Assembly: GCA_965248055.1 (NCBI GenBank)
Contig: CBDFIJ010000004.1
Coordinates: 988,299-1,052,298, forward strand
Direction: 5' to 3'
Source of the DNA: Candidatus Multivoradales bacterium
Lineage (GTDB): Bacteria > Acidobacteriota > Thermoanaerobaculia > Multivoradales > JAHEKO01
DNA length: 64,000 nt
Shown here one piece after another: positions 5,621 through 53,140 of this stretch. The position numbers and the translations under genes are program-made. The number at the start of each line of letters is the position of its first letter. Position 1 is the stretch's first letter. A model generated the notes under the pieces. The model was given only the letters and a program-made list of their open reading frames with translations. It searched no databases and was not told where the DNA came from.

Positions 5621-5808
5621 GGATGATACTTAACAGAACCAGAGTCCGTCCGGATATGCGCGAGTCTAGTCTTCAACCCCAACGCCACGGACCGGCTCCT
5701 GCTGACGGTGCATTCTAAGCAAACCTCAATCCAGCACCAAGTGGGGACCCTCGGCGACCGCGCTGCCCTTCTACTGACACTGCTACTAAGACTCTGAGAG
5801 TCAACGAG

Positions 5809-12565: not shown

Positions 12566-12766
12566 CGCCTAACTCTACGGTAGATGTGTCATAGGTCACA
12601 CTACCCGGCGGCCCGTTCAGCCGACAATCTCACAAAGAAAATCGCGGCCTGGATGGTGAGTTCAGTTGGCATCACAATTCCTTCCAGCATATTTGTCGAA
12701 CTCAATCCGATCTATTACTCTGTCCCGATGTTCTTGAACGCAAAGGATCCCCGATAGGATAGATCC

Positions 12767-14035: not shown

Positions 14036-14051
14036 CGCAAGGGAGCGGCTA

Positions 14052-14732
14052 ATGATACAAACCGACCAGCTTACTCGGATCTATCACACAAAATATGTAG
14101 AGACCGCTGCCCTACAGCAAGTCAGTCTCGACATTAGTGAAGGAGAGTTCGTCTCACTAATGGGCCCATCTGGCTCAGGGAAATCAACTCTACTGCGCAT
14201 TCTCGGGCTTCTCGATCAGGCTACCTCGGGAAGCTATCTGTTAGATGGCTCAGAGACGGTTGACCTTTCGCCAGCGTCAAGACACAAGATAAGGCTCGGC
14301 ACAATTTCTTTCGTGTTTCAGGATTTCTGCCTGATTGATGATCTCACCATCGCGCAGAACGTTAGTCTTCCCTTGCGCTATCAAGGAGTGGCGCGGGAAG
14401 CGATTCGCGACAAGGTCGAAGCCACAATAAGCTCAGTCGGGATCTCGCACAGACAGCGACACTTTCCCTCTCAATTGTCTGGCGGCGAACAACAGCGAGC
14501 CGCGATTGCCCGCGCCTTGGTGACCGAACCCAAGCTACTTCTGGCCGATGAGCCTACCGGCAATCTAGATCAACAGACCGGCCTAACCGTACTCGAACTG
14601 CTTAGCGACCTAAACACCAGCGGTTGCACAGTCGCCATGGCAACCCATTCCCAAGAATGTGCCGCTTTTAGCTCGCGCGTAGTTACACTAAAAGACGGCC
14701 GTGTCGCGGCGGATACAGGTCAGAGTGAATAG
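14052..14732 (+). CDS. ABC transporter ATP-binding protein (MacB/LolD family)
   Basis: [36 protein letters not shown]. Confidence 0.85.
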
Positions 14733-17088
14733 GTTCGAACTCAACACCGCTCTGAAGAGCTTGGTCAGAAACTGGCCTTCTACCGTCTTGAGCATGGTCG
14801 TTCTCGGAGTATGTAGCGCAGCTTTCTTCCTCGTGGCGTTCTTCGCGATTCGTGAGTATTCATACGAACGATGGTTACCCGGCTACAGACAAATCTACCG
14901 AATCTGGCTTGAGCTAGAGGAACCCGGCGAACCGCTTCGAGTAGCTGTCACCCCAGTACCTCTCGGCCCAACCGTTGCGGAGCAAGCCCCGCAAGTAGAA
15001 AGCTACACTAGGCTTTTGAAATATCCTCGACGACCAGTACTCGTTGAAGCTGGCGGGCTCAGATTTTTTGAAGAAGAAAACTTCTTCACCACTGATCAGA
15101 GCTTCTTTGATGTCTTTCGAATCTCGCTTGTCCGCGGTGACACACCTACCGCGCTAACCGGTAGCGACTCCCTGGTGATTACTGATCGTGCAGCCTTCAA
15201 GTACTTTGGAACACTCGACTGCGTCGGGCGAACGATGCTGCTTAACAAAGAAGACCTCAAGACTGTTACGGGAGTGATGTCCTCGCGACAAGGACCCACC
15301 CATCTTGTTTACGACTTTCTGGCGAAGCATCCTCCGGACCCTGCGCCCAACTGGTACCAGTTCAAAGCACGCACCTATGTTCGGTTTGCTCAGGAAGACA
15401 ATCGCGGCAGGGTGACGGACATTTTGCGCAGGATTGAACTCGACAAATACGGAGTCGACGCGTCCGACTACCACTACCATCTCCAGCCAATCGATGAGAT
15501 CCATCTCAATTCCAATTTCTTGGGAGAATTCCCCGGAGCTGGATCTGCTGCGACAGTACGTACTGCGATCTGGGCAGCGTTGATATTCCTCGCCCTCGGA
15601 GCCACCAATTTCGCTGTCTTCGAGGCCGTACGCCAGAGTACTCGAGCCAAGGAAACGGTGATTCGAGTTGTTAACGGAGCCTCCAGTCGTCAAGTATTGG
15701 CTCAAGCTATCGTCGAAGGGCTAATCGTTGCATCGATTAGCGTACTAATCGGCCTGTTCGTTTATTGGGTGGGTGGATTTCGTCTGATCGGCCTGCCAGA
15801 AGCCAAGTTCCAGCTGCTTGCCAGCCAGGAAAGCTGGTGGATTCTCGGAGCTATTGGCTTGGTTATAGCAGTGGTCGTGTTGGCGGCCTCCATCTATCCA
15901 GCCTACGTGGCCCTTAAGGTCGATCTTTCCGGGGTGACCAAGGGGACCTGGAGAAAACGCTCGGGACGTCTATCGATTCGACGATTTCTAGTAGGCGTGC
16001 AATTACTGATCGCTTTTGTCCTCGTCTTTGCCAGCTTCAGATTAACCTCGCAGGCCCATCAGCTCTCTCAGCTCTCTGTCGGTTTCTCAACTGCAGGCCT
16101 GATGGAGGTAGAGCTTCCGCGCAGCACGCAGATCAGCACCCAAAACCTGCGCGACCTAGTGGGTCGAGACCCGCTCGTAACTAAAGCGTCTTTGGTCTCC
16201 CAAGCCCCGGGTAGTGCTCTCAGAAAAGCGTCATTCATACCGGAAGGCAACGGTGCCGAGCACGTTATGGCCAGCGTCCTTTGGGGTGACGAGTATCTGC
16301 CAATGGTCATGGAACTCAAGCAAGTGGCCGGCCAGAGTTTTGGTGTTGACTCCCAAGCAAATAGAGAGTCGGCATTCATCATCAATGAAAAAGCAGCATC
16401 TATTTTTGGCTGGGAGAATGCTGTTGGAAAGCGACTCACACTAGATTCTGATGAAGACACCCTGGAGGGATCGGTGGTTGGCACGGTGGCAGATTTTCAT
16501 TTCGGCTCAGTTGTCGAAGTTATCGACCCGATCGTGATCATGTACGCACCTGACAAGGCACAGAAAATTTTGCTACGAACCAAGCCAAATACCAGTGATC
16601 CAAAAGCAGTACTCGAAGCGATATGGAGACAAGCGATCCCCGGCGAACCTCTGAGAGCAATCGACACGTCCGCCAAACTCGACAATCTCAATCAGTCCAA
16701 TCACCAACTGGCGCGTGCAGGGAAACTTGTCGCCAGTAGCGCTAGCCTAGTTGCCGCACTCGGCCTCGTGGCGCTGATCGCGGTGTTGCTTACCGCCAAG
16801 ACTCGTGAAATCTCTATACGCAGGCTATGCGGAGCCTCGCAGGAGCGCCTGATCGCAACCCTAGCTGGCAAACTGGGCCTCTTGGTCGCGATTGTCGGAG
16901 TTATTGCGATACCAATTGGCTCTCAACTAGTCTCACAAGTGAACGAAATCGTCGAATCCGAAGTGAAGGTCCTGATCGTTGGGTACTTTCTGGTAATTGG
17001 ACTGTTCGAGGCACTGCTCGTTGCAACAACAGCCTTATTTCTATGGAGGCGGAGGGATCGTTCGATTGTTGACGGTTTCATGGATTAA
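14725..17088 (+). CDS. FtsX-family ABC transporter permease (MacB-type, two FtsX domains)
   Basis: 795-aa ORF with two multi-TM FtsX-like blocks. Start set at GTG 14725, which overlaps the ATPase stop by 8 bp. The ORF-track start is 14701. Confidence 0.7.
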   Translation: MNRFELNTALKSLVRNWPSTVLSMVVLGVCSAAFFLVAFFAIREYSYERWLPGYRQIYRIWLELEEPGEPLRVAVTPVPLGPTVAEQAPQVESYTRLLKYPRRPVLVEAGGLRFFEEENFFTTDQSFFDVFRISLVRGDTPTALTGSDSLVITDRAAFKYFGTLDCVGRTMLLNKEDLKTVTGVMSSRQGPTHLVYDFLAKHPPDPAPNWYQFKARTYVRFAQEDNRGRVTDILRRIELDKYGVDASDYHYHLQPIDEIHLNSNFLGEFPGAGSAATVRTAIWAALIFLALGATNFAVFEAVRQSTRAKETVIRVVNGASSRQVLAQAIVEGLIVASISVLIGLFVYWVGGFRLIGLPEAKFQLLASQESWWILGAIGLVIAVVVLAASIYPAYVALKVDLSGVTKGTWRKRSGRLSIRRFLVGVQLLIAFVLVFASFRLTSQAHQLSQLSVGFSTAGLMEVELPRSTQISTQNLRDLVGRDPLVTKASLVSQAPGSALRKASFIPEGNGAEHVMASVLWGDEYLPMVMELKQVAGQSFGVDSQANRESAFIINEKAASIFGWENAVGKRLTLDSDEDTLEGSVVGTVADFHFGSVVEVIDPIVIMYAPDKAQKILLRTKPNTSDPKAVLEAIWRQAIPGEPLRAIDTSAKLDNLNQSNHQLARAGKLVASSASLVAALGLVALIAVLLTAKTREISIRRLCGASQERLIATLAGKLGLLVAIVGVIAIPIGSQLVSQVNEIVESEVKVLIVGYFLVIGLFEALLVATTALFLWRRRDRSIVDGFMD

Positions 17089-17284
17089 GCACTACTACCA
17101 AGGTGTTACACCTTGATTTGGCGTTACAAATTGAAGGCTAACCCCATCCACCGGGCAATTATCGGAAGCGAAGCATACGAGAATTTGACTTGCGCTGGGA
17201 AAAAGCCTACATTTGAAGCGTTAGTTAACAGAGGGCGTTGGATTGAGTCGCCGAGTCGTCCTCGCAACGAAAGGAGAACGACCA

Positions 17285-17365
17285 ATGCTCACACTTATCA
17301 CGATGGTTCTTACCGCCGATCACGAGACTGCCGGATCCGACGCCAAGGGTGGTGTCGAACTCTAG
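17285..17365 (+). CDS. small ORF (26 aa, MLTLITMVLTADHETAGSDAKGGVEL) with a strong Shine-Dalgarno sequence
   Basis: AAAGGAGA sits 7 nt upstream of the ATG. The ORF lies between the efflux operon and the next gene in an otherwise non-coding ~750-bp stretch. Confidence 0.3.
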   Translation: MLTLITMVLTADHETAGSDAKGGVEL

Positions 17366-17854
17366 GCGAGTACGGTTCGATTTTCTCTAGTTCCTGCGTC
17401 TAGGAACTCATCGGCTTGGCGCCACCGGAGACCTCTTTTGAGTTGTATCTCTGGAACCCCACCGTTTGGCGCTGATTTACCGCGAGAAATTTCTCCGCCA
17501 GCGATGGCCTCTACCTCCACGCCGATCTCGCCGACTTTGAGAAGCGACTCCAGCCCGCTTCCTTTGATCGGCTGTGGCTTCTGATTACAGTCCTGAGCAG
17601 GTCACATTCTGCGCCAGTCGTTCACAGACTACCAGTAGGATTTCAGGGGGATCCATTGGACAACTGCGCGAAGGATTACCGCGCGTACGTCTTGGCCGCG
17701 CCCATATTCTGGATTGGCCCTAAGCCATCCGACATCCTCAATGATCGAGTGAGCAGTACTGCAACCCCGCCCACAGATGACCGAGGATCAATACAGCTGA
17801 ACCGAGAACTAAGATTGTTGTCATGGCTATAGTTTACGCCTTTTTTGCGCCCTC

Positions 17855-18958
17855 GTGCAACACCCTCCCTGTGGACTAGATATATTGTGTTTCACAGCCG
17901 CTTTTCGAAGAACTAGTTTTGCAATAGTTGGTTCTTTGACGATTGCATTCTGGGCTGAGCTCCTGGATGCTGCGGAGAACGCGCCGATCGATCAGACTAG
18001 TGCGCCGTCGTCGACCTCAAACGATAGTGAGTTCATTGAGGCCATCACGGTGCGTGAAACCTCAATCATTCTGCGCAAGTCGGTATCGCGAGAGGATCTG
18101 ATAGTTAGCGTTGGAGGACGTGTTCTCACCCAAACCTCCACTTTGACGCTAAATTCGGGTGATCTTCCGGTCTCGATTTACGTCAACCACTGCAATACTG
18201 ATTTAACTGGCGTTACCCGAGGTCTAGGGATGCTACAGGCGCTGGCGCCGCAGCTCTCCGCGTTCGGCCCGACGACCGTGTGGTCGGCAGGAGCATCTCT
18301 CGTTCAACTGGCTGCACCTGCTACGACTCCAGAACGAATCGTGTGGTTGATAAATGACCTCGTGGGTTTCACTCCGAAGCTCTGTTCGGCATCAGCAGGC
18401 GATTCAGCGATCCTGGCCAATGCAATCGATAAGTTGCCTTTGCAGGACCCGCACCGTCTTGTCTTCCTCTTGGGCTTCTTTGAGAACGAACTCTACAATC
18501 CTAGTTTGAAAGAGCTGAGCCAAACGATTTCCGCGCGAGGCTTGATCCCAGTGATAATCGCTCCGAGCGCCACTAGCCAGCCTTTAGAGAGTACGGACGT
18601 GCGACCCAGCATTATGGATCCGGACCCTAAACCGCCCGTGTTCAACTTAAACAATTTTCTGGTTTGGCTGTTTAGTCGTGAGAAAGACACCAGGCTCAAG
18701 AACGATCCGCGCATCTATGACCATGCCCTCGATCCCCGTTACCAAACAATGCGTGCCTTCATCGGCCCAACCGATGGCCGGATAGTTAACCATCACGAGC
18801 AATTGGAGAACTTCGTTGCCTCGCTTCAGCAGGCCACTGTGGTCCATTTCAGCCTTCCAGAAGGCCTACCCCTGGACACTCCACTGCCCTTGCGCGTTAT
18901 CGACGCACGCCGGGGTCGGGATGTTTCGCGAAGAAAGTGGTTAGCCGTCTTACGATGA
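17855..18958 (+). CDS. hypothetical protein (start uncertain)
   Basis: 367-aa ORF with lower GC than the flanks. No recognisable motifs. Confidence 0.4.
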   Translation: MQHPPCGLDILCFTAAFRRTSFAIVGSLTIAFWAELLDAAENAPIDQTSAPSSTSNDSEFIEAITVRETSIILRKSVSREDLIVSVGGRVLTQTSTLTLNSGDLPVSIYVNHCNTDLTGVTRGLGMLQALAPQLSAFGPTTVWSAGASLVQLAAPATTPERIVWLINDLVGFTPKLCSASAGDSAILANAIDKLPLQDPHRLVFLLGFFENELYNPSLKELSQTISARGLIPVIIAPSATSQPLESTDVRPSIMDPDPKPPVFNLNNFLVWLFSREKDTRLKNDPRIYDHALDPRYQTMRAFIGPTDGRIVNHHEQLENFVASLQQATVVHFSLPEGLPLDTPLPLRVIDARRGRDVSRRKWLAVLR

Positions 18959-18978
18959 CATTGGTATAGCACCTCGCG

Positions 18979-20370
18979 CTACCCTTCTCCGGTCTGACTC
19001 CAGGGATCCAGAGCCTCGCTGAGATCCTCCGGCGACATCACCTGCTGTTCCAAACACAGCGCGCGGATGGTCTTGCCGCTAGCGTAGGCCTCCTTGGCGA
19101 TTGCCGCGGCGCGGTCGTAGCCGATCTTGGGTACCAGCGCGGTGACCATCGCCAGCGACTTTTCGACCATCTCGGTGGCGCGCTCTCGATCCGCTTTGAG
19201 ATTGTCAACACAACGCTCGGCGAGCAACCGCGACGCACTGGCCAGAATTTCGACCGACTGCAGCAAGTTGTAGCCGATTACCGGCATCATCACGTTGAGT
19301 TCAAAGTTACCCGATAGACCGCCCAAAGCAATGGTGGCGTCATTGCCGATCACCTGCGCTGCGACCATCAACACCGACTCCGGGATCACCGGATTCACTT
19401 TGCCGGGCATGATTGAGGACCCCGGCTGCAAGCTGGGGAGGACCAACTCACCCAGTCCGCAACGCGGACCCGATCCCAACCAGCGTAGGTCGTTGGCGAT
19501 CTTGGTCAGCGAAACAGCGATGCCGCGCAACGTTCCGGAGGCATCCACCGCCGCGTCCTTGGCGGCCAGTGCTTCGAATTTGTTCGGAGCCGGGACAAAC
19601 GGATGCCCGGTGCGCCCCGCGATCCGTTCAATCGCCGCGTCGGCAAATCCAGCTGGGGCATTAAGACCGGTGCCAACCGCGGTTCCACCCAACGCCAATT
19701 CCGCCAACAGCCGCAGCGACTCCTCCAGACGGGTGATGCCGTTGCGAATCTGGCGCTCATAACCGGAGAACTCCTGCCCCAGACGAACCGGAACTGCATC
19801 TTGCAAGTGGGTGCGGCCGATCTTGACGATGCTGTCGAACTCGGTCGCCTTGGCAGCCAGAGAAGTCGCCAAGATCGACAACGACGGCAACAAGTCTTCA
19901 GCGATCGCTCCATAGGCAGAAACGTGAATCGCCGTGGGAATCGTGTCATTCGACGATTGGCCCCGATTAACATGATCGTTCGGGTGGACCGGGGTTTTGC
20001 TACCCACCACGCCACCGAGAATTTCGATCGCCCGATTGGCGATCACCTCATTGGTGTTCATGTTGGTCGAGGTCCCGGAGCCGGTCTGAAAAATATCCAG
20101 TGGAAAATGCTCGTCGAGCTTGCCTGCGATGACCTCCTCGGCAGCTTCAATAATTGCTTTGGCTAGGTCTGGCTCGAGATCACCGCGCTGCAGGTGAACT
20201 TCCGCTGCCGACACCTTAATGGTGCCCATAGCCGCGACAAAGCGGCGTGGAAAGCGCAGCCCGCTGACCGGGAAATTGAGCCTCGCTCGCTCCGTTTGGG
20301 CCCCGTAGTACTTATCAGAAGCGACTTCCATTTCACCCAGACTGTCTCTTTCGATTCTCGTATTACTCAT
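18979..20370 (-). CDS. aspA: aspartate ammonia-lyase (aspartase/fumarase superfamily)
   Basis: Signature [15 protein letters not shown]. The C-terminal half tracks Bacillus-type aspartase ([21 protein letters not shown] ... LNPY-like end). Also has YYGAQT and [20 protein letters not shown]. Start overlaps the carB stop (ATGA). Confidence 0.7.
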
Positions 20371-40972: not shown

Positions 40973-41824
40973 CTATTTCAGGCTGTTCGCCGCTTTCTGT
41001 CCAGAAACCTCGCGCCGATAATCTTCCGACCAAACCTGAATCGGGCGCACCATCTCAAACATGCGGCTCAATAGCCGCTGCGGAATGCGAGCAGCCAAGT
41101 TGCTCTTGTTGAAATCTTGGTCCTGCGCTGATGGTTCGCGATCCAAGGATTCTTCGAACCCGGTCTGAGTATCCATCTGCTCCGGCTTGGGCATCGGATA
41201 GTTGGAAGTAAAGATGGTTGGCAGCCGTGCGTTGTAGCGCGTGTTGATCAGTAGGTCGAGTTGTTCCAAGGCCCAAGGACGAGGTGTCTGAGCACCAAGC
41301 TCGTCCAAGACCAGCAACTCTGCACGCAACGCCGGGTCCAAAATCTTGCCTCGATTGGGTCCACCATTGTTGCCAAAGGTTGCCTGAATACTGTGGATCA
41401 AAGAGGCGAAGTCGACGAAGTGAGCGCGCACCTGGTAGCGCTTAACCAACTCGTGAAGGATGGCCACCGCCAAATGGGTCTTGCCGGTGCCCGGAGGCCC
41501 CCAAAATAACAGGCCGGTATCGGTAAAGGTGCCATCCCTACGAATGAAACGTTCGACATAGCGCTCGGCCAAGGTTTTGGCCTCCAGCAAGCTCTTGTGG
41601 TGACCTGGCTTGTGATGATTGGGATCAAAATTCTCCAAGGTGCAGTTGCGGTGCCGAACCGGCACTCCCGACGCAGCCAGAGCGCCCGCCAAAAGCGACT
41701 TCTCCCGGCACTCACAAGGCTCCGCGGCCCCCGCTTCGCCGTCGTCTACCACCACCCAACCCAGACCGCCACACTTGAGGCAGTTCTCGGTCTCTACTGT
41801 TGAATCAACGCCTCCCTTTTGCAC
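40973..41824 (-). CDS. IstB/DnaC-like AAA+ ATPase with N-terminal Cys cluster
   Basis: Walker A WGPPGTGKTHLAVAI. Walker B LLVLDELG. N-terminal CLKCGGLG...CEC zinc-ribbon-like. Confidence 0.6.
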   Translation of the reverse strand: MQKGGVDSTVETENCLKCGGLGWVVVDDGEAGAAEPCECREKSLLAGALAASGVPVRHRNCTLENFDPNHHKPGHHKSLLEAKTLAERYVERFIRRDGTFTDTGLLFWGPPGTGKTHLAVAILHELVKRYQVRAHFVDFASLIHSIQATFGNNGGPNRGKILDPALRAELLVLDELGAQTPRPWALEQLDLLINTRYNARLPTIFTSNYPMPKPEQMDTQTGFEESLDREPSAQDQDFNKSNLAARIPQRLLSRMFEMVRPIQVWSEDYRREVSGQKAANSLK

Positions 41825-42697: not shown

Positions 42698-42734
42698 TGA
42701 CCTCGCACATCCTGAATTGCCGGAACGCAAGGAG

Positions 42735-43880
42735 CTGGAGATTCAGCCAACATCGAGATCCTTCGACTCGGGCTACGCCCTCGCTCAGGATGACAACGGA
42801 AGAGGTAGCTCCCCACGCCGCTATCCAGCATGCAACGAAATGCCTTCATCGGAGCGAGCTGTCCACGATCCCAATGAACTAACCCGGCCTGCTCTTCGTC
42901 GGGGAGGGGCAAGTTCAAACGGCCCTACACGCCGGGGTTATCCTGAGTGGCCGAAGCGTGCAGCTCTACCCCGTAGTCACCCTGAACGGACTATCCAAGG
43001 CCCCAAATGAACTAACCCGGCTGTTCTTCGTCGGAGAGGGGATTGCCCCCTCCCGCACCCTTTCACTGTGGTGGTCCAGAGCGACCGAAGCGTACAGCTC
43101 TACCCCGTAGTCACCCTGAACGGGCTATCCAAAGTCCCAAAATGAACTAACCCGGCGCTGTTCTTCGTCGGAGAGGGGATTGCCCCACCCGCACCATTCC
43201 ACCGCAGTGGTCCAGAGCGACCGAAGCGTATTGCTCTACCCCGTCGTCATTCTGAGCGAACCAGTCATCCGCTCAGCACCCATTCCACCCGTGGTCATCC
43301 TGAGCGACCCCGAGTCCGCGAGGGAGAGTCGAAGGATCTCAACTTCACAGCGCACACTCTTTCTGCAGAGGGCAGCATTGTCGCGACCCGAACTGAGGAA
43401 GGCAAAAAACGGGAACCCCCAAGGGGATCCCCTACATCGTCTTCCAACGTCAGGTGAATCGCCGAAACGGAGAACCATTCGCCAGCATCGAGATTCTTCG
43501 ACTCGGGCTACGCCCCTCGCTCAGGATGACAACGGAAGAGGTAGCTCGCCACCCCGGTACCCAGCATGCAACGAGTTGCCTTCATCGAAGCGAGCTGTCC
43601 ACGATCCAAATGAACTAACCCGGGCTGTTTCTTCATAAGAGAGGGCTTGTCCCCTCTCACACCCCTCCACCGCGGTCGTCCCGATCGACCGAAGCGTACA
43701 GCTCTACTCCGTTGTCATCCTGAGCGACCCCGAGTCCGCGAGGGTGAAGTCGAAGGATCTCAACTGCACCGCGTACACTTCTTCTGGAGAAGGCAGCATT
43801 GTCGCGCCACTAACTCAAGAGGACAGAACGGGAACCTACGAGGGCGCCCCTACATTTCTTTTTCTTGGTGGCTTCGTAGG
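42735..43880. repeat. complex repeat region: two ~370-bp duplicated modules carrying F2 elements (GAGATCCTTCGACTC..CGCTCAGGATGAC in both orientations), plus three tandem ~128-bp subunits each carrying a GAGGGG-N5-CCCCTC hairpin
   Basis: 42750-42890 matches 43487-43625, and 43290-43440 matches 43712-43855, at ~90% identity. Subunits at 42875/43003/43131. Reading frames through it (DDNGRGSSPRRYPACNE..) are repeat-derived. Confidence 0.7.
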
Positions 43881-43892
43881 TGCGAGAACCGA

Positions 43893-44267
43893 CTAACGCC
43901 GCACCAAAGGACCCGCGTCAATCTCCACCAACGCATGACGCCGATCGACGCCTGCCCTACGATCGCCCATCTCCTGACGGACAAACTCGGACATCCGTTC
44001 GACCTCGGCTTCTAGCTGGTCGATTCGCGCTTGGAGTTTGAGGATGACGTCGACGCCGGCTAGGTTGACGCCCATGTCACGGGTGAGGGTAAGGACGGTT
44101 TCTAAGCGCTTGAGAGTGTCGTCGTCGTAGAGGCGGGTGTTGCCGTCGCTGCGCGGTGGGTCGATCAAGCCTTCGCGCTCGTAGAGCCGCAAGGTTTGAG
44201 GGTGGATGTCGAAGCGTTCAGCGACGACGCTGATCATCACCGTTGTTTGTCGCTTTCTTTTCACCAT
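43893..44267 (-). CDS. hspR: MerR-family heat-shock repressor
   Basis: MISVVAERFDIHPQTLRLYEREGL aligns with the HspR HTH. Located 240 bp downstream of dnaK. Confidence 0.7.
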   Translation of the reverse strand: MVKRKRQTTVMISVVAERFDIHPQTLRLYEREGLIDPPRSDGNTRLYDDDTLKRLETVLTLTRDMGVNLAGVDVILKLQARIDQLEAEVERMSEFVRQEMGDRRAGVDRRHALVEIDAGPLVRR

Positions 44268-44505: not shown

Positions 44506-46482
44506 TTAGCTGGCCTTCTGCTGGTCTTCAGCAGCCTCGTCCTCAGCAGCCCCGTCCTCAACAGACCCGTCGTCAGCAGTTGAGTCCTCAACGACCTCGT
44601 CCGCCTCGTCTACAAACTCAGCATCGATGACTTCGTCCTCGTCGCTGGCCGCGTCGCCACCGGCATCCGGTGCCGCACTCTCTTCAGCAGCCTGCTGATA
44701 CATCGCCTCGGCGAGTTTGTGCGACGCCTGCGACAAGTTGGCCATGGCTTCTTCCATGGTGGTGGCGTCATCGCTCTCTAGTGCGGTCTTGGCGGTCGCC
44801 AAAGCCTCATCCAAGGTTGCCTTGTCGGCGTCCGCGAGTTTGTCGCGGTGTTCACCCAAACTCTGCTCGGTCGAGTAGACCAAGCTGTCCAGCTGGTTGC
44901 GAACCTCGACGGTCTTACGACGCTCTTTGTCGGTATCGGCGTTGTCTTCCGCCTCACTGACCATGCGCGAAATCTCGTCGTCACTCAAACCACTGGAAGC
45001 GGTAATGGTGATGTTCTGCTCCTTGCCGGTGCCCTTGTCTTTGGCCGAGACGTTGACGATGCCATTGGCATCGATGTCGAACGCGACCTCAACCTGCGGG
45101 ATGCCACGTGGCGCCGGCGGAATGCCTACCAGGTGGAAACGACCGAGAGTCCGGTTGTCCTTGGCCATCTCGCGCTCACCCTGGAGCACGTGAACCTCGA
45201 CCGAAGTCTGGTTGTCCGCGGCAGTCGAGAACACCTCGCTCTTGTTAGTCGGAATGGTGGTGTTGCGCTCGATCAAGCGAGTGAACACACCGCCCAAGGT
45301 CTCGATACCCAGCGATAGCGGCGTAACGTCCAGCAGCAGAACGTCTTTGACGTCCCCGGCCAGCACACCACCCTGTACCGCGGCACCGATCGCCACCACT
45401 TCATCCGGGTTGACGCCCTTGTGTGGCTCCTTGCCGAAAAACTCCGCGACCTTCTTCTGGATCAACGGCATCCGGGTCTGGCCACCGACCAAGACCACTT
45501 CGTCGATGTCACTGGCTTTGACGCCAGCGTCTTTGAGCGCCTGAGCACAAGGCTTCAACGACCGCTCGACCAGGTCACCAACCATCTTCTCCAGCTGGCT
45601 GCGTTGGATCTTGACGTTGACGTGCTTGGGGCCGGAGGCATCGGCAGTGATAAACGGCAGATTGACCTCGGACTCGGAAGCAGTGGAAAGCTCAATCTTG
45701 GCCTTCTCCGCCGATTCCTTGAGCCGCTGCATCGCCATCGGATCGCCGGAGAGATCCAAGCCTTGGTCCTTCTTGAACTCAGTCAGCAACCACTCGATGA
45801 TCACTTGGTCGACGTTGTCGCCACCCAAGTGGGTATCACCGTTGGTCGCCTTGACCTCGACCACCCCGTCGCCCACTTCCAGAATCGAAATATCAAAGGT
45901 ACCGCCACCGAAGTCATAGACCGCGATCAGCTCGTCACCCTTCTTGTCCAAACCGTAGGCTAGTGCTGCCGCAGTCGGCTCGTTGACCAAACGCTCGACT
46001 TCCAGACCGGCAATCTTGCCCGCGTCCTTGGTCGCCTGGCGCTGCGCGTCATTGAAGTATGCCGGCACCGTGATCACTGCCTTGGTGACCTTCTCTCCCA
46101 GATAATCCTCGGCAGCCTGCTTCAGCTTGCGCAGAATCATCGCCGAAATCTCTGGTGGCGAATACTCCTTGCCACCAGCGACCACCCGCAACGCGCCGTC
46201 GTTGTCGTTGACCTTGTAGGGAACCATCTTCATCTCTTCCGAGACTTCGTCCCGGTTGCGGCCCATAAACCGCTTGATCGAAAACACCGTGTTCTCGGGG
46301 TTGGTCACCGATTGGCGCTTCGCCACCTGCCCCACCAGCCGCTCACCGCCCTCAGTGAATGCGACCACCGAAGGGGTGGTGCGGTTGCCTTCCGAATTGG
46401 CGATCACGGTCGGGTCTGAACCCTCCATCACCGCAACCACGCTGTTGGTTGTTCCTAAGTCAATACCAATAATTTTGCTCAA
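44506..46482 (-). CDS. dnaK: molecular chaperone DnaK (Hsp70)
   Basis: [32 protein letters not shown]. Full-length 658 aa. Confidence 0.95.
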
Positions 46483-46577: not shown

Positions 46578-46617
46578 GGTGAATTGACAATATTCGCATG
46601 AGCGCGTCTTTGTCAAA
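46578..46617 (-). promoter_or_regulatory. candidate dnaK promoter (TTGACA-16-AATATT on the minus strand) embedded in an inverted repeat GAATTGACAA-N19-TTGTCAAATTC
   Basis: Palindrome and hexamers read directly from the sequence ~100-135 bp upstream of the dnaK start. Confidence 0.4.
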
Positions 46618-46655
46618 TTCGTCCTACACTTTATATGACAAGAATAAGCGCAGAT

Positions 46656-48569
46656 TTATTCCCGGTGTCGGGCCGCCGCCAAACACAGCTGCGTAGTCAG
46701 CAGATCGAGTGCGTTTAACTCGCACCCTTCATTATGGAGACGCTCTAACGTCGCTGCGATATGCATTGTTTTCTTTGACTTCCGATTGGAGACCCCAAGC
46801 TCAACGGCAACCTCACCCCACGCCCGATCCCAGCAAGAATCGCCGATGTCACCTTTGATAGCCGCCTCTATGTCCCTCGGCCACAGTACGCAGTTGTCAA
46901 GAAACTGAGTAGTACGAGGGTGCTGTTCGTTCTGCTGCTGTCCTAGGACGCCCAGAATGGAATTATTGAGATCATTACTCCTCGTATCGCCCAAGGAATG
47001 CCCTTCTCTATGATCCCCGTCCACCACGGCGTACACAGGAATCCCCAATTGCACCAATATTGCGGCAAAGTCTTGTATCTTGTCCTTTCCACCACATTCA
47101 ACAATGTGTCCACCGTAGCCTCGGAACTCATCCCAACGCCCAAACAGCCTTAGGCTGGTCGCGACATGTGCCACATCCTCCAACCCCTCAACCAATACCA
47201 CAAATGATGCAAAGAACATTTCCGCTTGGCTAGGTCGAAGACACTGTTCGACCGCCATCATTTGACTGCTAGGAAGCCTTGGCGCGCCGCCACCGGCCTC
47301 AGCCAAAACTTCACACAACTTTTTGTAGCTTAGTCCGGTAACCAAAGCCTCTTGTCTCTGATTATGCCTTCGAACCAATCGTACTGATTCAAATCCACGA
47401 CCAGACACAAATTGGGGACTATGACTTGTAACAACTATCTGCACGCCCACATCAGTCGCGAGTCGCTCAAGAACAGCGGCAAGATGTCGCGTTTGTGGTG
47501 GATGCTGAAAGAGTTCAGGCTCCTCGAAACCCAAGAGAAGAGTTCTCCCCTTATCGGACCTCGCATCCGCCAACTCTTCAAGCACTGCGGCGACATAAGC
47601 TCGCTGCAGCCCATGCCCCGTTCTTGAAAACGTCCCGACAAATTCATCGTCATCGCCGAGATGTACTTCGGCCTGAGGTCGAGCAACTTGAATCGACCGA
47701 GATGGTTCCGAAGCCCACTGCAGATTCAACGCAACTCTGGAATGGGACCAGGTGCGAAGTCTCTCTCTGAGGGCAGAACGCAGCGCATCAAGATCAACCT
47801 GCCTTCGGTCTATGATCCCCTGATAGTCAGACTCAGTGCGCTTTCGAAGGGCCTCGACCTCTTCATCAAGGGCAGTGTGCCCTTGGAGTGACAGACTTAG
47901 AAGTTCAGCCAGTGCACTATTCCGTGCATCTGTGGATTCATCAGAGGGGTCCTGCATGGCCGGAATCCTGATCCACTGGAGATGCCTTCCTAACTTGCTT
48001 CCTTGTTGCCAGCCGTAGAACTGGTCTCGGCTTTGTATCTCGACGCACTCACCGCGATGCTCTTCTTCATATGTTCGAAGAGCCAACTTCATGTTTGCCT
48101 TCACTCGTTCGTCGGGCAGGTCTGAAAATTCCTCCCGAAGTTTTGAATATATTCCTCTCAAATCGACCGCAGCCCCGCCACTTGAATCAACTTCGAAATA
48201 GGCAGCGAACCTTTCAATCCCGAGTCTTGATCCAAACTGAACAATTAGAGCTTGCTGTTTTTCAACATCCCACTCCGCGACAGCGCTTACCACCAATTCA
48301 CCACTCCGGACGTAATCCTCTAGTTCGGCCAGCGCATCAACCGAGAGACTCGAAAACGTCAGGGTAATCCGAATTGGCGATGATGTATTTCGGCGATGAA
48401 AATCCTCTTCTTCTAACGACCCCCCCTTGCGAAAAAAGACATCCATTGCCTCCAAGACCGTAGATTTTCCTGCACCATTTGGGCCTACAAAGCAGACGTA
48501 TTCATCGAAGTAGATGGTAATATCCTTAAAGCAGCGAAAATTTTCCACGCGGAGCTTAGTTAGCTGCAT
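46656..48569 (-). CDS. OLD-family ATP-dependent endonuclease (ABC-type ATPase + Toprim; GajA/AriAB-like)
   Basis: Walker A VGPNGAGKST near the N-terminus. FEEPELFQHP (Walker B). VVTSHSP. C-terminal Toprim with VLVEGLED and VVDGD. GC content ~48% vs >60% in the flanks. Confidence 0.75.
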   Translation of the reverse strand: MQLTKLRVENFRCFKDITIYFDEYVCFVGPNGAGKSTVLEAMDVFFRKGGSLEEEDFHRRNTSSPIRITLTFSSLSVDALAELEDYVRSGELVVSAVAEWDVEKQQALIVQFGSRLGIERFAAYFEVDSSGGAAVDLRGIYSKLREEFSDLPDERVKANMKLALRTYEEEHRGECVEIQSRDQFYGWQQGSKLGRHLQWIRIPAMQDPSDESTDARNSALAELLSLSLQGHTALDEEVEALRKRTESDYQGIIDRRQVDLDALRSALRERLRTWSHSRVALNLQWASEPSRSIQVARPQAEVHLGDDDEFVGTFSRTGHGLQRAYVAAVLEELADARSDKGRTLLLGFEEPELFQHPPQTRHLAAVLERLATDVGVQIVVTSHSPQFVSGRGFESVRLVRRHNQRQEALVTGLSYKKLCEVLAEAGGGAPRLPSSQMMAVEQCLRPSQAEMFFASFVVLVEGLEDVAHVATSLRLFGRWDEFRGYGGHIVECGGKDKIQDFAAILVQLGIPVYAVVDGDHREGHSLGDTRSNDLNNSILGVLGQQQNEQHPRTTQFLDNCVLWPRDIEAAIKGDIGDSCWDRAWGEVAVELGVSNRKSKKTMHIAATLERLHNEGCELNALDLLTTQLCLAAARHRE

Positions 48570-48627
48570 TGCTGGTCCTCAATTTGTAGCAGAGGCCGTT
48601 TCATTAAAGCACAAAAAAACCAACGCC

Positions 48628-48843
48628 ATGAACAGAACTCCAGTTGACTCATCCAATATAGCCTCTGTTGGGTACGATTCAAAACGTCGGATTCTTGAGG
48701 TCCAGTTCAATAACGGAACAGTCTACGAGTACTATGAAGTACCCTCGACAACTCACAGCAGCTTGATGTCTGCGGGCTCTACTGGTAGCTACTTCAACGC
48801 CAATATTAGGGATCGATTCCGCTTTACTAAGATTCAATCTTAA
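48628..48843 (+). CDS. KTSC-domain protein
   Basis: IASVGYDSKRRILEVQFNNGTVYEYYEVP.. matches the KTSC (lysyl-tRNA synthetase C-terminal-like) domain. Start moved to ATG 48628. Confidence 0.55.
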   Translation: MNRTPVDSSNIASVGYDSKRRILEVQFNNGTVYEYYEVPSTTHSSLMSAGSTGSYFNANIRDRFRFTKIQS

Positions 48844-48911
48844 GCGTACAGCGCAGCTGGCTGCATAAGAATTGGGCACAGATCTAAAGTATCCTCAGTA
48901 AAGAAGGGCAC

Positions 48912-49360
48912 ATTTTGATCGACGCGCCGATGGAGGAGAACCCTATCTGCCAACTGTCTCAAAGTTGTTGACAGGTTCCGAGAACGCGGCACAGATCCTC
49001 GCCAATGTCGCAGCCCTGGGATTTCGCGTCGAGGACATCGAGATCTTGTTGGCATCGCACGCCCATTTCGACCACACCGGGGGCATGGCGGAGGTCAAGG
49101 AACGAACGGGAGCCCATATTTCAGGAGGGCAGTTTTCGGAAGCCCCGTTTTCGAAAGCACTGCTGTGGCTGAGCGCGGCGGGCGCGGAGCTTGGCAGCAC
49201 GGGAGGCAAGGGGAATTTTCACTTCGGCGATGCGCTTGCCTACCCTGCGGTCGCTGCCGACCACATCCTGGAGCACAGCGCCCCTACAGAAGAGCCCACG
49301 GTTGAGCTCGGTGGACACTCGCTGACCGCGCTGCTAACCCCAGAACATATTGCTCATTAG
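48912..49360 (+). pseudogene. metallo-beta-lactamase (B3-like) gene fragment, frameshifted and truncated
   Basis: ILIDAP in one frame. The next frame holds AAQILANVAALGF...LLASHAHFDHTGG...HFGDALAYP...GHSLTALLTPEH, then a premature stop at about half the normal MBL length. Confidence 0.5.
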
Positions 49361-49477
49361 ATATTGGGGGCTGCACCAGTTGGACGTTCGAGGTCATGGA
49401 CGGTGACCGAAAGCTCAAGGCGCTCATCGCCTGTAGTCTCACTGCCCTACCTCTCGATCGAGGCAGGAGGTCGCCTT

Positions 49478-49524
49478 GTTCGTGAAGATTGTAAGTTGAA
49501 TTGACAATTTTCACGAACAATCCT
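49478..49524. promoter_or_regulatory. 11-bp-arm inverted repeat (TTGTTCGTGAA-N24-TTCACGAACAA) upstream of the AAA ATPase gene
   Basis: Perfect arms seen in the sequence. Contains TTGACA. Confidence 0.35.
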
Positions 49525-49535
49525 AGGATCCTCTC

Positions 49536-50726
49536 GTGCCTATTCGTCGCGATGTTGCCTCCCACATATCTGCATTATGTGAGTCCTTCCCGGTGGTCAC
49601 CATTACCGGTCCCCGTCAGTCGGGCAAGACAACTCTTTGCCGGGATCTTTTTCCAGACAAACCGTATCTCTCTCTGGAATCGCTCGATCAACGCGAGTAC
49701 GCGTCAGGCGATCCACGTGCCTTTCTTGATGAATACCGCGAAGGTGCAGTGATCGACGAGGTGCAGCGAGTCCCCGACTTGCTCTCGTACCTACAGACTG
49801 AGGTCGACCAAGACCCGAGGGCTGGGCGGTTCATCCTCACCGGTTCTGCGAATCTCGCCCTTTTGCAGTCGGTTTCACAATCACTCGCAGGCCGCACTGG
49901 GCTGGTCACATTGCTACCCTGCACGCGTCGAGAAATAGAGCGCTTTCCCGACTACCCCCCAGTCTCTTGGAAGCAGGACCTTTGGGAGCACATTTGGCGC
50001 GGTGGCTTTCCTGCAATTCCAGACCGCGGTATCGCCCCTGCAGACTGGTTTGAGGCCTACGTTGCAACCTACGTCGAACGCGATGTCCGCCAAATCACCA
50101 ATGTCACCGATCTGTCGGCATTCCAAACCTTCCTGGGATTGATTGCTGGACGCACCGGGCAGTTGCTCAATCTTTCGCAGGTGGGCAACGACGCGGGCAT
50201 AACCCACAACACCGCAAAGTCCTGGCTCTCGGTACTGGAAACGGGGTACCTCGCTTTCCGGCTGCGTCCGTTTCACGCCAACCTGCGCAAGCGTTTGGTC
50301 AAGTCTCCGAAGACCTATTTCTACGACACTGGGTTGGCCTGCTTTCTGATCGGCATTCGCTCACCCGATCAGTTGGCGACACACCCGCTGCGGGGAGCTC
50401 TGTTCGAGAACTACGTTGTCTGCGAGATACTGAAGTCGATCCTGAACAAGGGTCGACGTCCCCGGCTCTCTTTCTACCGCGACCACTACGGACACGAAGT
50501 CGATCTGTTGGTGGAGCGAGAGACCGACATCACCGCTGTTGAGATCAAATCGGGCGGTACGATTGCCAGCGACTTCTTCAAGGACTTGAAATGGTTGCGC
50601 GAGCAGGGCAAGGGAACTCTCAATGCGACCATGAATCCGATGTTGGTATACGGAGGAAGAGAAGCACAAGAGCGCAGCCACGCCAAGGTTGTCCCGTGGC
50701 CCGATATCGAAGATTTCAATTGGTAG
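49536..50726 (+). CDS. AAA-superfamily ATPase with DUF4143 C-terminal domain
   Basis: VVTITGPRQSGKTTL (Walker A), DEVQRVPDL (Walker B) and a C-terminal DUF4143-like region. A common stand-alone ATP-binding protein family. Confidence 0.75.
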   Translation: MPIRRDVASHISALCESFPVVTITGPRQSGKTTLCRDLFPDKPYLSLESLDQREYASGDPRAFLDEYREGAVIDEVQRVPDLLSYLQTEVDQDPRAGRFILTGSANLALLQSVSQSLAGRTGLVTLLPCTRREIERFPDYPPVSWKQDLWEHIWRGGFPAIPDRGIAPADWFEAYVATYVERDVRQITNVTDLSAFQTFLGLIAGRTGQLLNLSQVGNDAGITHNTAKSWLSVLETGYLAFRLRPFHANLRKRLVKSPKTYFYDTGLACFLIGIRSPDQLATHPLRGALFENYVVCEILKSILNKGRRPRLSFYRDHYGHEVDLLVERETDITAVEIKSGGTIASDFFKDLKWLREQGKGTLNATMNPMLVYGGREAQERSHAKVVPWPDIEDFNW

Positions 50727-50753: not shown

Positions 50754-51644
50754 ATGCAGCACGAGAGCATCGGAAACACCGCATTCTCGGCCTCATCCGT
50801 CTCCTACGGCGCCTGGCCGCTTTCCGACCCGTCCCCTCGCCCCACCGAAGCGGAGGCTATTCAGGTGGTCCACGCCGCGTTGGATGGTGGAGCGACGCTG
50901 ATCGATACCGCGGATGCTTACTGCCTGGAGCAGAGCGAGGTGGGGCACAACGAGCGGTTAGTGGCCAAGGCGCTGAAGGCCTGGTCGGGGCCGCAATCTG
51001 GAGCCAAGCATGAGATCACGGTGGCAACCAAGGGCGGGTTCGTCCGGCCCGGCGGTCAGTGGGTGTCGAAGGCCGATCCAGAGCACTTACGCTCCGCTTG
51101 TGAGCATTCGCTGCGATGTCTCAACACCGACTGCATCGACCTGTATCAACTCCATGCCCCAGATCCCAAAGTGCCGCTGGAGGACAGCGTTGGAACGCTG
51201 GCCGCTCTGCAGCAGGAAGGCAAGATTGACAAGATCGGGCTTTCCAATGTCTCGGTGGCAGAGATCGAGATCGCCCGATCGATCGTTGAGATCGTCAGCG
51301 TGCAGAGCCGACTCAATCCGTTCTTCCGTGAGGCGCTGCGCGACGGCGTAGTCGATCATTGCGACCAGAATGGTCTGGTGTTCTTCGCCTACAGCCCGCT
51401 GGGCGGTGGCCGGCTCAACCGCAAGTTGCCCGAGATTCCCGAACTGCAGGCGATCGCCGAGAGCCACGGTGCCTCCAACCATGCGGTGGTCTTGGCCTGG
51501 GTGCTGGCGCAAGGGTCCAACGTGGTGGCGATCCCGGCTGCGCGTAGGATTGCACACGTGCTCGATAGCCAGTCGGCTGCCTCAATCGAACTCAGCGCCG
51601 AAGAACTGGCCTTGATCGACGCGGCGACCTTCTCCATCGCTTAG
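50754..51644 (+). CDS. aldo/keto reductase
   Basis: LIDTADAY (Asp/Tyr of the catalytic tetrad), AKR-type (beta/alpha)8 barrel throughout. Confidence 0.85.
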   Translation: MQHESIGNTAFSASSVSYGAWPLSDPSPRPTEAEAIQVVHAALDGGATLIDTADAYCLEQSEVGHNERLVAKALKAWSGPQSGAKHEITVATKGGFVRPGGQWVSKADPEHLRSACEHSLRCLNTDCIDLYQLHAPDPKVPLEDSVGTLAALQQEGKIDKIGLSNVSVAEIEIARSIVEIVSVQSRLNPFFREALRDGVVDHCDQNGLVFFAYSPLGGGRLNRKLPEIPELQAIAESHGASNHAVVLAWVLAQGSNVVAIPAARRIAHVLDSQSAASIELSAEELALIDAATFSIA

Positions 51645-51650
51645 GACAGC

Positions 51651-52406
51651 GTGCCAACCTTCGCCCTTTTGTGTCTTCTGCGCCTCTTGGCGGTCGGGGC
51701 GGAAGACGACAATCGCCCTGCTGTCCCGGAGCTTCTGTACGGCAGCCAGACGCAATACCCGATCTGGGTTTCGCTGGATGCGATCAACCAGAACGGTGTC
51801 GACCCGAACTATCCGCACAATGAGGTGGTGTGGGACAACCGCCCCATCGCACTCATGCCCTCCGCCGAATGCGACGAAACGACCATGATCTACGATCATT
51901 TCGGATGGATCGAGCGCCGCCCGGAGAGTGTTGAAGAGCTGTTGACAAACGAGCAGCCGATACTCCGTTTTGAAATCGTGCATTCGACTCCTGGCTTCTA
52001 TACCGGCATGCCGGCGTTCATGCTCCAATTGCGGACCGAGTGGATGAGCGAATCCGCGTTCCGAAAGTACGGCTGGCGGTCGTACTTCAATGCTGCATTG
52101 TTGGAAGGTTCATTCAGACAAGGGGATCAGTACCAATGCTGGAATCAATTAGGTGATGGAGAGCTTGCTCTCCAATCTCTCACTGTTGGATCAGACGTCC
52201 TGTACTTGCCATTGCACGAAGCATACGGTCACGAGGCTTTGGAGTTCGTATATGCGGAAGAAATCTTCGCGCGAGGCCAGGACGGCACCGAGTTGATCCC
52301 CGACGAGCTGAGCAAATCCAGCCCATCACCTTTGTCTTTTGAAGTGATTGAGAAGGTGGTCCGCAGTAGCTTACGCCAAGTGGTACAGCCGGAAGACTTC
52401 GACTAG
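51651..52406 (+). CDS. hypothetical protein
   Basis: 251-aa ORF. GTG start 7 bp after the AKR stop. Lower GC. No known motif recognised. Confidence 0.35.
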   Translation: MPTFALLCLLRLLAVGAEDDNRPAVPELLYGSQTQYPIWVSLDAINQNGVDPNYPHNEVVWDNRPIALMPSAECDETTMIYDHFGWIERRPESVEELLTNEQPILRFEIVHSTPGFYTGMPAFMLQLRTEWMSESAFRKYGWRSYFNAALLEGSFRQGDQYQCWNQLGDGELALQSLTVGSDVLYLPLHEAYGHEALEFVYAEEIFARGQDGTELIPDELSKSSPSPLSFEVIEKVVRSSLRQVVQPEDFD

Positions 52407-52469
52407 AAACGCTCTAAGTACCCGCTCGTTCGCCGCAGACGGCGTGCGAGAACAGGCCGACTCAGGTGG

Positions 52470-53095
52470 GCCGGTCGATACAGATTCCCGCCCCTCGCTC
52501 CCCACCCGCTGGAATGACGGGCTGCTACTACCTTTTACCCCACCCGCGTCAGAATGGGAGGGGGCAACCCCCTCGATCCAACTCAGCGCCGAAGAACTGG
52601 CCTTGATCGAAGCCGCGACCTTCTCCATCGCCTAGCTATCAACGTATTCAAAACGACACACCCCCAACTCGTCATCCCGGCGGGGAAAGGATTGGGGGGC
52701 CGGGATCTACACATCTCAGCTGCGGAATCTGCACGCCCACCTTGGCAAAGATTCCCGCCCCACGCTCCCCTCCCGCGGGAATGACCGCCTGCTTTGCAGG
52801 GGCGGGTTTTACCCGCCCGCGTCAGAACGGGCGGGGACAAACCTCCCCCCTACTTCTCCATCGCCTAGCTATCTCCGCGCGCCCTTATGACCTACCCAAA
52901 CTCGTCATCCCGGCGGGGGAAGGATTGGGGGGCCGGGATCTACGCATCCCAGCTGCGGAATCTGCACGCCCACCTTGGCAAAGATTCCCCCCCACGCTCC
53001 CCGCCCGCGGGAATGACGGGCTGCTTTGTAGGGTCGGGCTTTACGCCCGCCCGCGTCGGAAGGGAGGGGATAAACCCCTCCCCTACACCTAGCTG
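52470..53095. repeat. tandem array D: ~240-bp module x~2.6, each carrying a divergent F1 palindromic element, a GGGAGGGG-N4-CCCCTCCC hairpin and a copy of the last ~60 bp of the AKR gene
   Basis: 52650-52890 vs 52890-53095 ~90% identical. Tail ..SAEELALIEAATFSIA* at 52577-52635 duplicates the AKR C-terminus (51585-51644). Confidence 0.7.
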
Positions 53096-53140
53096 GCGTA
53101 TGCGTACGAAGCGCGGCCCGAGCACTGCTACCATCACCGC

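Follow-up and report, generated by a model that had tools for sequence, protein, structure and literature searches.

A 64-kb stretch of a Candidatus Multivoradales genome (contig CBDFIJ010000004.1; the whole stretch is referred to here as the window) carries an imported segment of about 2.2 kb that is foreign in composition and contains exactly two genes, one encoding a 637-residue nuclease of the OLD family and the other a 71-residue KTSC-domain protein. The segment lies between the promoter of dnaK and a decayed beta-lactamase gene. The favoured reading, to which we give a probability of about 0.55, is that it is a horizontally acquired defence cassette made up of a Class 1-type OLD nuclease and a small KTSC protein; for the narrower claim that the KTSC protein works with the OLD nuclease in the window, the odds are put slightly above even. 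Among anti-phage effectors, OLD nucleases belong to the commonest. Single-gene OLD systems are already a known defence type, the Class 1 exemplified by P2 Old and Vc OLD (PMC10568477, PMC12392090). To the extent that PADLOC v2 and the searchable literature can tell, a recurrent pairing of OLD with KTSC is undescribed: PADLOC v2 models neither the pair nor the KTSC domain, and no link between KTSC and OLD or Toprim proteins appears in the searchable literature. A sequence-only reading of the window had remarked that an OLD gene with a small KTSC partner is not a described defence pairing, and this stands, with the addition that the pairing recurs elsewhere.

A low-GC segment of two genes upstream of dnaK

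The window was surveyed for GC content and codon composition (GC at third codon positions, GC3), open reading frames (ORFs), matches to Pfam, NCBIfam, PADLOC v2 and Rfam, and promoters and repeats. GC content is 0.507 over the 2,230 bp from position 46,660, against 0.588 ± 0.021 for non-overlapping windows (z = -3.8). The segment from 46,660 to 48,890 is essentially the lowest-GC 2.2-kb stretch in the 64 kb, and the window-wide minimum falls at 46,690. GC3 is 0.497 in the OLD gene (z = -3.4) and 0.486 in the KTSC gene (z = -3.6), compared with 0.666 ± 0.050 in the 35 other genes. The sequence-only reading had placed a GC dip across about 3 kb (46,600-49,540) and had counted a frameshifted subclass-B3 metallo-beta-lactamase fragment as part of the islet. 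The dip is real, but its low-GC part measures only about 2.2-2.4 kb (46.45-48.9 kb). The fragment is likewise present (about 48,900-49,470, plus strand), but its composition is native (GC 0.61, GC3 0.68), so the import is confined to about 2.2 kb and exactly two genes, and the remnant is a damaged host gene that did not arrive with them.

Both imported genes are intact. The OLD gene occupies 46,656-48,569 on the minus strand and the KTSC gene 48,628-48,843 on the plus strand, with a divergent intergenic spacer of 58 bp (48,570-48,627) common to the two. The left junction, at about 46,660, is set by a conserved motif upstream of dnaK, GGAATAAATCT, and the stop codon of the OLD gene is the TAA within this motif. 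On the right, GC content rises again, and the junction falls after the KTSC stop codon (48,843) and before about 48,900, where beta-lactamase residues first become recognisable.

On the left, the cassette is bounded by the native promoter region of dnaK (46,587-46,662, minus strand; dnaK itself lies at 44,506-46,482 on the same strand), which was delimited by a promoter scan and by alignment with relatives. A -35 box, TTGACA (46,616-46,611), is followed by an element resembling the HspR-associated inverted repeat (HAIR), TTTGACA-N7-GCTCATG, and this HAIR-like inverted repeat extends over the -35 box. The motif GGAATAAATCT (46,662-46,652) stands exactly 46 nt upstream of the -35 box, a spacing shared in the alignment by L006, L007 and L008, and the entire arrangement of -35 box, HAIR-like element and GGAATAAATCT recurs in L006 and L007, the two nearest syntenic relatives. 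Judged by these elements, the upstream region of dnaK is native and intact. An hspR-like MerR gene (43,893-44,267) follows dnaK and is kept in the nearest Acidobacteriota-like relatives; from this gene and the HAIR consensus, the HAIR-like element is a putative HspR operator. The possibility that OLD and dnaK form one operon was dropped: dnaK has its own conserved promoter and operator, and there is therefore no reason to link the two genes functionally.

The OLD gene is foreign by its distribution as well. A dnaK-anchored scan of one genome per species returned 80 loci, and an OLD gene is absent from the upstream side of dnaK in every one, including L006 and L007; the islet is thus not a conserved syntenic feature with native GC. 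No close relative of the source genome is among these loci; the best matches are Thermoanaerobaculia and 'Multivoradales' metagenome-assembled genomes with DnaK identities of 74-75%. In the nearest relatives, dnaK, hspR and two further downstream genes are syntenic, the genes upstream of dnaK are different, and MazG lies 4 kb from dnaK versus 8.9 kb in the window. Because these relatives share only about 75% DnaK identity and upstream synteny is not kept, the exact insertion junctions are not mappable. Clustered at 90% identity, the OLD protein stands as a singleton; identity to its nearest homologue is 44%, and homologues at about 40% are scattered across Bradyrhizobium, Cupriavidus, Pseudomonas, Planctomycetes and Anaerolineales. 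An exact look-up of the OLD protein on contigs returned no record. The other window proteins that were looked up are likewise all 90%-identity singletons or have no entry in the collection. Downstream of dnaK and hspR, an IstB/DnaC-like AAA ATPase gene (40,973-41,824) is syntenic in L006 and L007, and this conservation makes it a resident gene and not an IS21 helper.

Pfam finds no integrase or transposase among the neighbours of the OLD gene, and the repeat scan finds no significant att repeat flanking the islet. A 16-nt direct repeat, TGAATTGACAAT[A/T]TTC, at 46,580 and 49,497 brackets the OLD gene, the KTSC gene and the beta-lactamase remnant; it was rejected as an att site because about 0.2 chance matches are expected in 5.5 kb and because both copies overlap promoter-like TTGACA boxes. 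A weaker motif near both islet edges, AGAA..GCACAGAT, is likewise not significant. With neither integrase nor significant att repeat, and with a region that is not conserved among relatives, the earlier suggestion that the position upstream of dnaK is an unusual integration site carries little weight.

The OLD nuclease and the KTSC protein

The 637-residue protein combines an AAA_15 domain (Pfam, 1e-37, residues 1-388) with an OLD-like_TOPRIM domain (PF20469, 1.4e-12, residues 452-519), and among PADLOC models 'Old' scores best (6e-51), with AriA and many GajA models ranking below it. In an alignment of 32 sequences (the window protein and 31 homologues), the invariant residues are G29-S36 (GPNGAGKS), E349/E350 (EEPE), H383, E461, D465, D517 and D519. 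Walker A, EEPE, the Toprim glutamate and DxD are therefore all conserved, bearing out the architecture proposed from the sequence alone, that of an OLD/GajA/AriAB-type ABC ATPase joined to a Toprim domain with E and DxD. The closest match by sequence in the PDB is TsOLD from Thermus scotoductus (6p74, 4.5e-19), with which the Toprim domain also aligns; GajA chains match by sequence at the P-loop only. An AlphaFold2 model of the protein (predicted local distance difference test score 84.1, predicted template modelling score 0.79) retrieves 6p74 first in Foldseek (1.4e-22), then GajA, then the OLD protein of retron Eco8.

Several features bear on the class of the nuclease. The glutamate of the Toprim domain and its DxD motif are 56 residues apart, approximately as in TsOLD, compared with 132 residues in Bacillus GajA (E379 to D511; PMC8136825), so the protein lacks the helical insert characteristic of Class 2 (PMC8136825, PMC10568477). 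ATPase and Toprim reside in a single ORF and are not split as in the Class 4 PARIS system. No UvrD/PcrA/Rep-like helicase of the GajB kind lies within about 10 kb of the OLD gene, as the earlier reading had noted; the gene downstream of OLD is dnaK, and the sole nearby helicase is a DinG/XPD-type gene 10 kb away. The neighbours (dnaK, the KTSC gene, the beta-lactamase remnant, an AAA_14/DUF4143 ATPase, an aldo-keto reductase, GGT and MazG) include no split AriB within about 10 kb and, by Pfam, no reverse transcriptase domain, and Rfam returns no retron or other non-coding RNA between 42 and 54 kb at E <= 0.1. Taken by these criteria of domain, motif and context, the protein is a divergent, intact OLD-family nuclease of the Class 1 type, with predicted activity. 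A Shine-Dalgarno-like GAGGA precedes the OLD start codon by 6 nt, and a promoter-like site directed toward OLD (48,682-48,655, minus strand) lies within the KTSC ORF, as a consensus match only.

Comparison with named OLD systems locates the protein more precisely. With Class 1 members such as P2 Old, TsOLD (6P74), Vc OLD and E. coli YbjD it shares the catalytic motifs, the lack of a helicase or retron partner and a Toprim domain without the Class 2 insert, and TsOLD is its best match in both sequence and fold. The structural alignment with TsOLD nevertheless gives an identity of just 17%, and the window protein is longer by about 110 residues. It also has an adjacent KTSC gene, a pairing that other OLD lineages repeat, and Class 1 is defined as single genes without partners (PMC10568477). 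Gabija has the same ATPase-Toprim architecture, and many GajA profiles match the window protein with E-values from 1e-29 down; however, no GajB is nearby, the Toprim spacing differs, and beyond the P-loop the GajA structures match by fold and not by sequence. The ATPase half matches the AriA profile of PARIS (AriA plus AriB) at 3.6e-38, and PARIS resembles P2 Old in showing that OLD-type Toprim nucleases can target tRNA, but in the window ATPase and Toprim are fused in one protein.

The second gene encodes, as first proposed, a KTSC-domain protein of 71 residues. It matches PF13619 over its full length (2.2e-25, 88.6 bits against a gathering cut-off of 25), has all 15 of the family-invariant columns, and matches the standalone KTSC structure 7x8c over residues 1-69 (5e-18). 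It also matches the HerA C-terminus in the SIR2-HerA structure 8wiv (2.8e-17). In this Paenibacillus complex, a KTSC domain is fused to the C-terminus of HerA, within what the authors call the 'C-terminal arm' (PMC11472057), and HerA coupled with a KTSC protein has been noted elsewhere (PMC9503650). A SIR2 and HerA pair stands 12-25 bp ahead of each of the two closest relatives of the window KTSC, which are 62% and 58% identical to it, and the order SIR2-HerA-KTSC is annotated on four plasmids, from Sulfitobacter, Bradyrhizobium, Mesorhizobium and Pseudoalteromonas.

KTSC domains occur in other settings as well. In haloarchaea, KTSC genes follow ThiF/E2 genes. The domain is also found at the C-terminus of lysyl-tRNA synthetases, the source of its name (Pfam description). 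In L018 (1,157-2,608) a tyrosyl-tRNA synthetase ends in a fused KTSC domain, placed behind its S4 domain, and this hints at tRNA binding; this match was met near dnaK and set aside as unrelated to the islet. On Deinococcus aquaticus plasmid pDATS02 (118,026-123,624), a KTSC gene overlaps a 309-residue gene of unknown family, and the two are convergent to a complete Gabija system (GajA 2.6e-183, GajB 1.3e-129) at a distance of 1.5 kb, a co-location and not an adjacency.

OLD-KTSC pairs in other lineages

The window's KTSC gene is 58 bp from OLD on the opposite strand and the nearest OLD family lacks KTSC in its inspected contexts, yet two other OLD lineages have the pair. They emerged from a KTSC profile scan across the collected loci. 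The first is represented by L089, the decisive member of just eight useful loci from a metagenome scan with the OLD alignment, which was dominated by generic P-loop patterns. In L089 the KTSC gene ends 5 nt upstream of the gene for a 657-residue OLD protein whose top PADLOC match is 'Old'. The pair forms a 2.4-kb block of GC 0.57-0.62 in a contig of GC 0.69-0.74, and on each side of this block stands a 75-nt copy of the 5' end of a DUF1156/HmaB methylase gene, the two copies being direct repeats with 89% identity. The L089 OLD clade comprises over 120 clusters, 66-86% identical and drawn from Planctomycetota, Acidobacteriota, Desulfobacterota and Dethiobacter. Two further contexts of this clade (L219-L221 and L222-L231) have the order RmuC-KTSC-OLD with 4-8-nt junctions, one in an intact Hma system and the other beside a type I restriction-modification (R-M) system next to HEC-01. 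Identities of 66-86% across several phyla indicate that the OLD of this block spread very recently and widely by horizontal transfer. The block, for which no name was found, sits in Hma, a system of helicase, DUF1156 methylase and DUF499, between the SNF2 helicase and the methylase, or else beside the type I R-M system with HEC-01, and L222-type loci still carry a 74-residue N-terminal fragment of DUF1156 after OLD.

The second lineage is represented by L242, an actinobacterial integrated element (IMG/VR UViG_2851877514_000001, 3,980-6,090). Here the stop codon of the gene for a 633-residue OLD overlaps the start codon of the KTSC gene after it, which has a GGGAGGG ribosome-binding site. The pair is a 2-kb block of GC 0.54 in DNA of GC 0.69, beside a tyrosine-integrase-like gene (2,944-3,669), and may be the clearest minimal OLD-KTSC element.

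The OLDs of the window, the L089 clade and L242 are 25-30% identical to each other. Gene order differs among them (KTSC then OLD in L089, OLD then KTSC in L242, divergent in the window), and in all three the pair is a compact lower-GC insert of similar size. The persistence of this adjacency despite rearranged gene order, and in lineages far apart, speaks for a functional link. The RmuC-KTSC-OLD block (L089, L219-L231) resembles the window in having KTSC immediately beside an OLD gene that PADLOC calls 'Old', and the L089 pair by itself makes up a low-GC cassette about as large as that of the window. It differs in that its OLDs are only 29% identical to the window's, KTSC is co-directional and 5-8 nt upstream instead of divergent, RmuC usually precedes the pair, and the block is embedded in larger defence operons.

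A number of observations weigh against a partnership in the window itself. The window OLD groups, at 41-44% identity, with a family that lacks KTSC or any conserved partner in all eight of the contexts inspected, which hold type I and type III R-M, Mrr, HEPN/MNT, RelE/HTH and SbcCD-like genes; because this family is standalone in those contexts, the window OLD may work alone. KTSC is likewise absent from five plasmid contexts of more distant OLDs. In the plasmid and phage collections, OLDs of the window type are few (11 and 2 records), none with KTSC, and overall KTSC accompanies only about 4 of about 33 distinct OLD contexts. The identity of the window KTSC to its HerA-linked counterparts reaches 62%, against 43-52% for the OLD-linked ones; its gene lacks an obvious Shine-Dalgarno sequence and is divergent from OLD and not operonic with it. 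KTSC is also often a lone small gene: among 80 viral-contig KTSC loci, SIR2-HerA is present in 4 and OLD in none, leaving 76 with neither OLD nor HerA nearby. The small sample and the HerA-like affinity of the window KTSC keep the question of a KTSC-OLD partnership unsettled.

These observations lend most to an alternative that we rate clearly below the favoured reading and still take seriously, in which OLD alone acts as an ordinary Class 1 system and KTSC is a bystander, either a small gene typical of mobile elements or phages that came along on the same DNA, or an orphan left at the end of a SIR2-HerA-KTSC operon after the other genes had been replaced. As single genes, P2 Old and Vc OLD do confer defence (PMC10568477, PMC12392090), the nearest OLD family stands by itself in every inspected context, the window KTSC most resembles the SIR2-HerA-linked proteins, and in phages KTSC is mostly a lone gene. 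An orphaned origin finds no echo in the window, where tblastn with SIR2 and HerA from the KTSC-linked loci gives nothing below E = 0.6 and no RmuC or DUF1156 remnant is present. Moreover, the import consists of exactly these two genes, with matching GC3, and KTSC-OLD adjacency is found in three lineages (the window's included), with translational coupling in two.

It is improbable that the cassette is an inert relic, imported recently, neither expressed nor selected, and decaying like the neighbouring beta-lactamase. The adjacent pseudogene, the KTSC gene without a clear ribosome-binding site and an unameliorated composition, under which intactness says little about selection, are what such a relic would leave; but both ORFs are full length and keep all invariant catalytic and structural residues, and OLD has a good Shine-Dalgarno sequence. 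Least probable is a native housekeeping repair or cell-cycle ATPase of the RecF/SbcC or Cran1 kind, for although the N-terminal 45 residues match RecF, Rad50 and SMC P-loop models and an archaeal OLD-family ATPase has a cell-cycle role (PMC12796447), the protein has a Toprim domain with E and DxD, is foreign in composition, is a singleton with homologues patchy across phyla in islands rich in R-M and toxin-antitoxin genes, and is absent from the dnaK locus of related genomes.

Under the reading of the segment as a defence cassette, OLD would be the effector. Its ATPase dimer would sense a phage-dependent state or engage on a phage cue, and the engaged ATPase would license the two-metal site of the Toprim domain to cut nucleic acid. 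Vc OLD nicks DNA, TsOLD and P2 Old degrade DNA in vitro, and P2 Old severs tRNA anticodon stems in vivo (PMC12392090, PMC10568477, PMC12445682). If the window system follows Vc OLD and TsOLD, it might nick or degrade DNA; if it follows P2 Old, it might cleave tRNA anticodon stems. Replication of the phage would be halted in both cases, and the cell would probably pay for it. KTSC would be a nucleic-acid-binding accessory docked on the ATPase, serving substrate or trigger recognition or restraining the nuclease until infection, and its role for HerA in SIR2-HerA systems would be the same as that proposed for OLD. The two genes are transcribed in opposite directions out of a 58-bp spacer, an arrangement that would suit a regulator and its target, so KTSC might also control expression of old.

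SIR2-HerA systems offer a parallel for such an accessory. The window KTSC is 56-62% identical to KTSC genes directly after SIR2-HerA, and in both settings a small KTSC unit accompanies a large oligomeric ATPase and a toxic effector. The likeness has limits: no SIR2 or HerA gene or remnant is present in the window, and the ATPase is an ABC-type OLD and not a HerA/FtsK hexamer. A bolder proposal, which we regard as tentative and not the likelier outcome, is that OLD with KTSC is a distinct unnamed OLD class, in which a KTSC protein of about 70 residues would be an obligatory nucleic-acid-binding subunit (a sensor, a specificity factor or a brake) and the pair would move between phyla as a self-contained cassette of 2.2-2.4 kb. 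The subunit would be the module that SIR2-HerA systems share and that lysyl- and tyrosyl-tRNA synthetases carry, and its presence on these synthetases raises the possibility that it presents tRNA to a Toprim nuclease, consistent with tRNA cleavage by P2 Old and PARIS.

Surroundings of the cassette and significance

The beta-lactamase remnant next to the cassette was traced by three-frame translation, NCBIfam and alignment to BJP-1 (5wcm). It covers approximately residues 44-174 of a 263-residue enzyme in three frames, with at least two frameshifts and both ends truncated, and scores 84.9 bits against the NCBIfam bla_subclass_B3 cut-off of 240. HAHFDH survives; where GHTPG would be expected, the sequence reads PEHIAH and then a stop codon. 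The remnant is a pseudogene, and it is squeezed between two probable defence genes. The one on its far side (49,536-50,726, plus strand; GC3 0.65) encodes an ATPase with AAA_14 and DUF4143 domains that matches the profile PDLC04790 of the PADLOC candidate system PDC-S01 (1.7e-109 over residues 3-362). Within this small defence patch it probably forms a module of its own. A palindrome at 49,476-49,520, with 22-nt arms of 86% complementarity, overlaps the -35-like TTGACA of this gene and may be an operator.

Further along, a 65-nt direct repeat (92% identical; 51,580-51,644 and 52,571-52,635) duplicates the 3' end of the aldo-keto reductase gene and brackets an ORF of 251 residues (51,651-52,406) with no match in Pfam, NCBIfam or PADLOC. 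The arrangement suggests a cassette of one gene that entered at the reductase gene's end, and it recalls the repeat-flanked cassette of L089. Intergenic repeat arrays occupy 42,700-43,900 and 52,400-53,100, with units of about 70-125 nt present two to four times at 60-95% identity and units of about 233-270 nt in three tandem copies. Both arrays resemble repetitive extragenic palindromic (REP) sequences or miniature inverted-repeat transposable elements (MITEs) and stand on either side of the dnaK-to-GGT region. A second lower-GC region (12,000-19,000, GC 0.52-0.55) contains a MacAB-like efflux operon (HlyD, ABC ATPase, FtsX-permease) and a 367-residue ORF without a family; its genes have a GC3 of 0.54-0.59, and it may be another acquired segment.

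In this genome, a small and recently imported defence patch, formed by OLD and KTSC and perhaps PDC-S01, disrupted a beta-lactamase-like gene and left the heat-shock promoter of dnaK intact. For annotation, the consequence is that PADLOC v2 models miss the pair, calling OLD only 'Old' and leaving KTSC without a model. How Class 1 OLDs sense infection and choose their targets is an open question (PMC10568477), and a recurrent small partner is a concrete handle on both. If KTSC is indeed a portable module for nucleic-acid recognition or control, it would link two unrelated defence families and give an uncharacterised domain a testable role.

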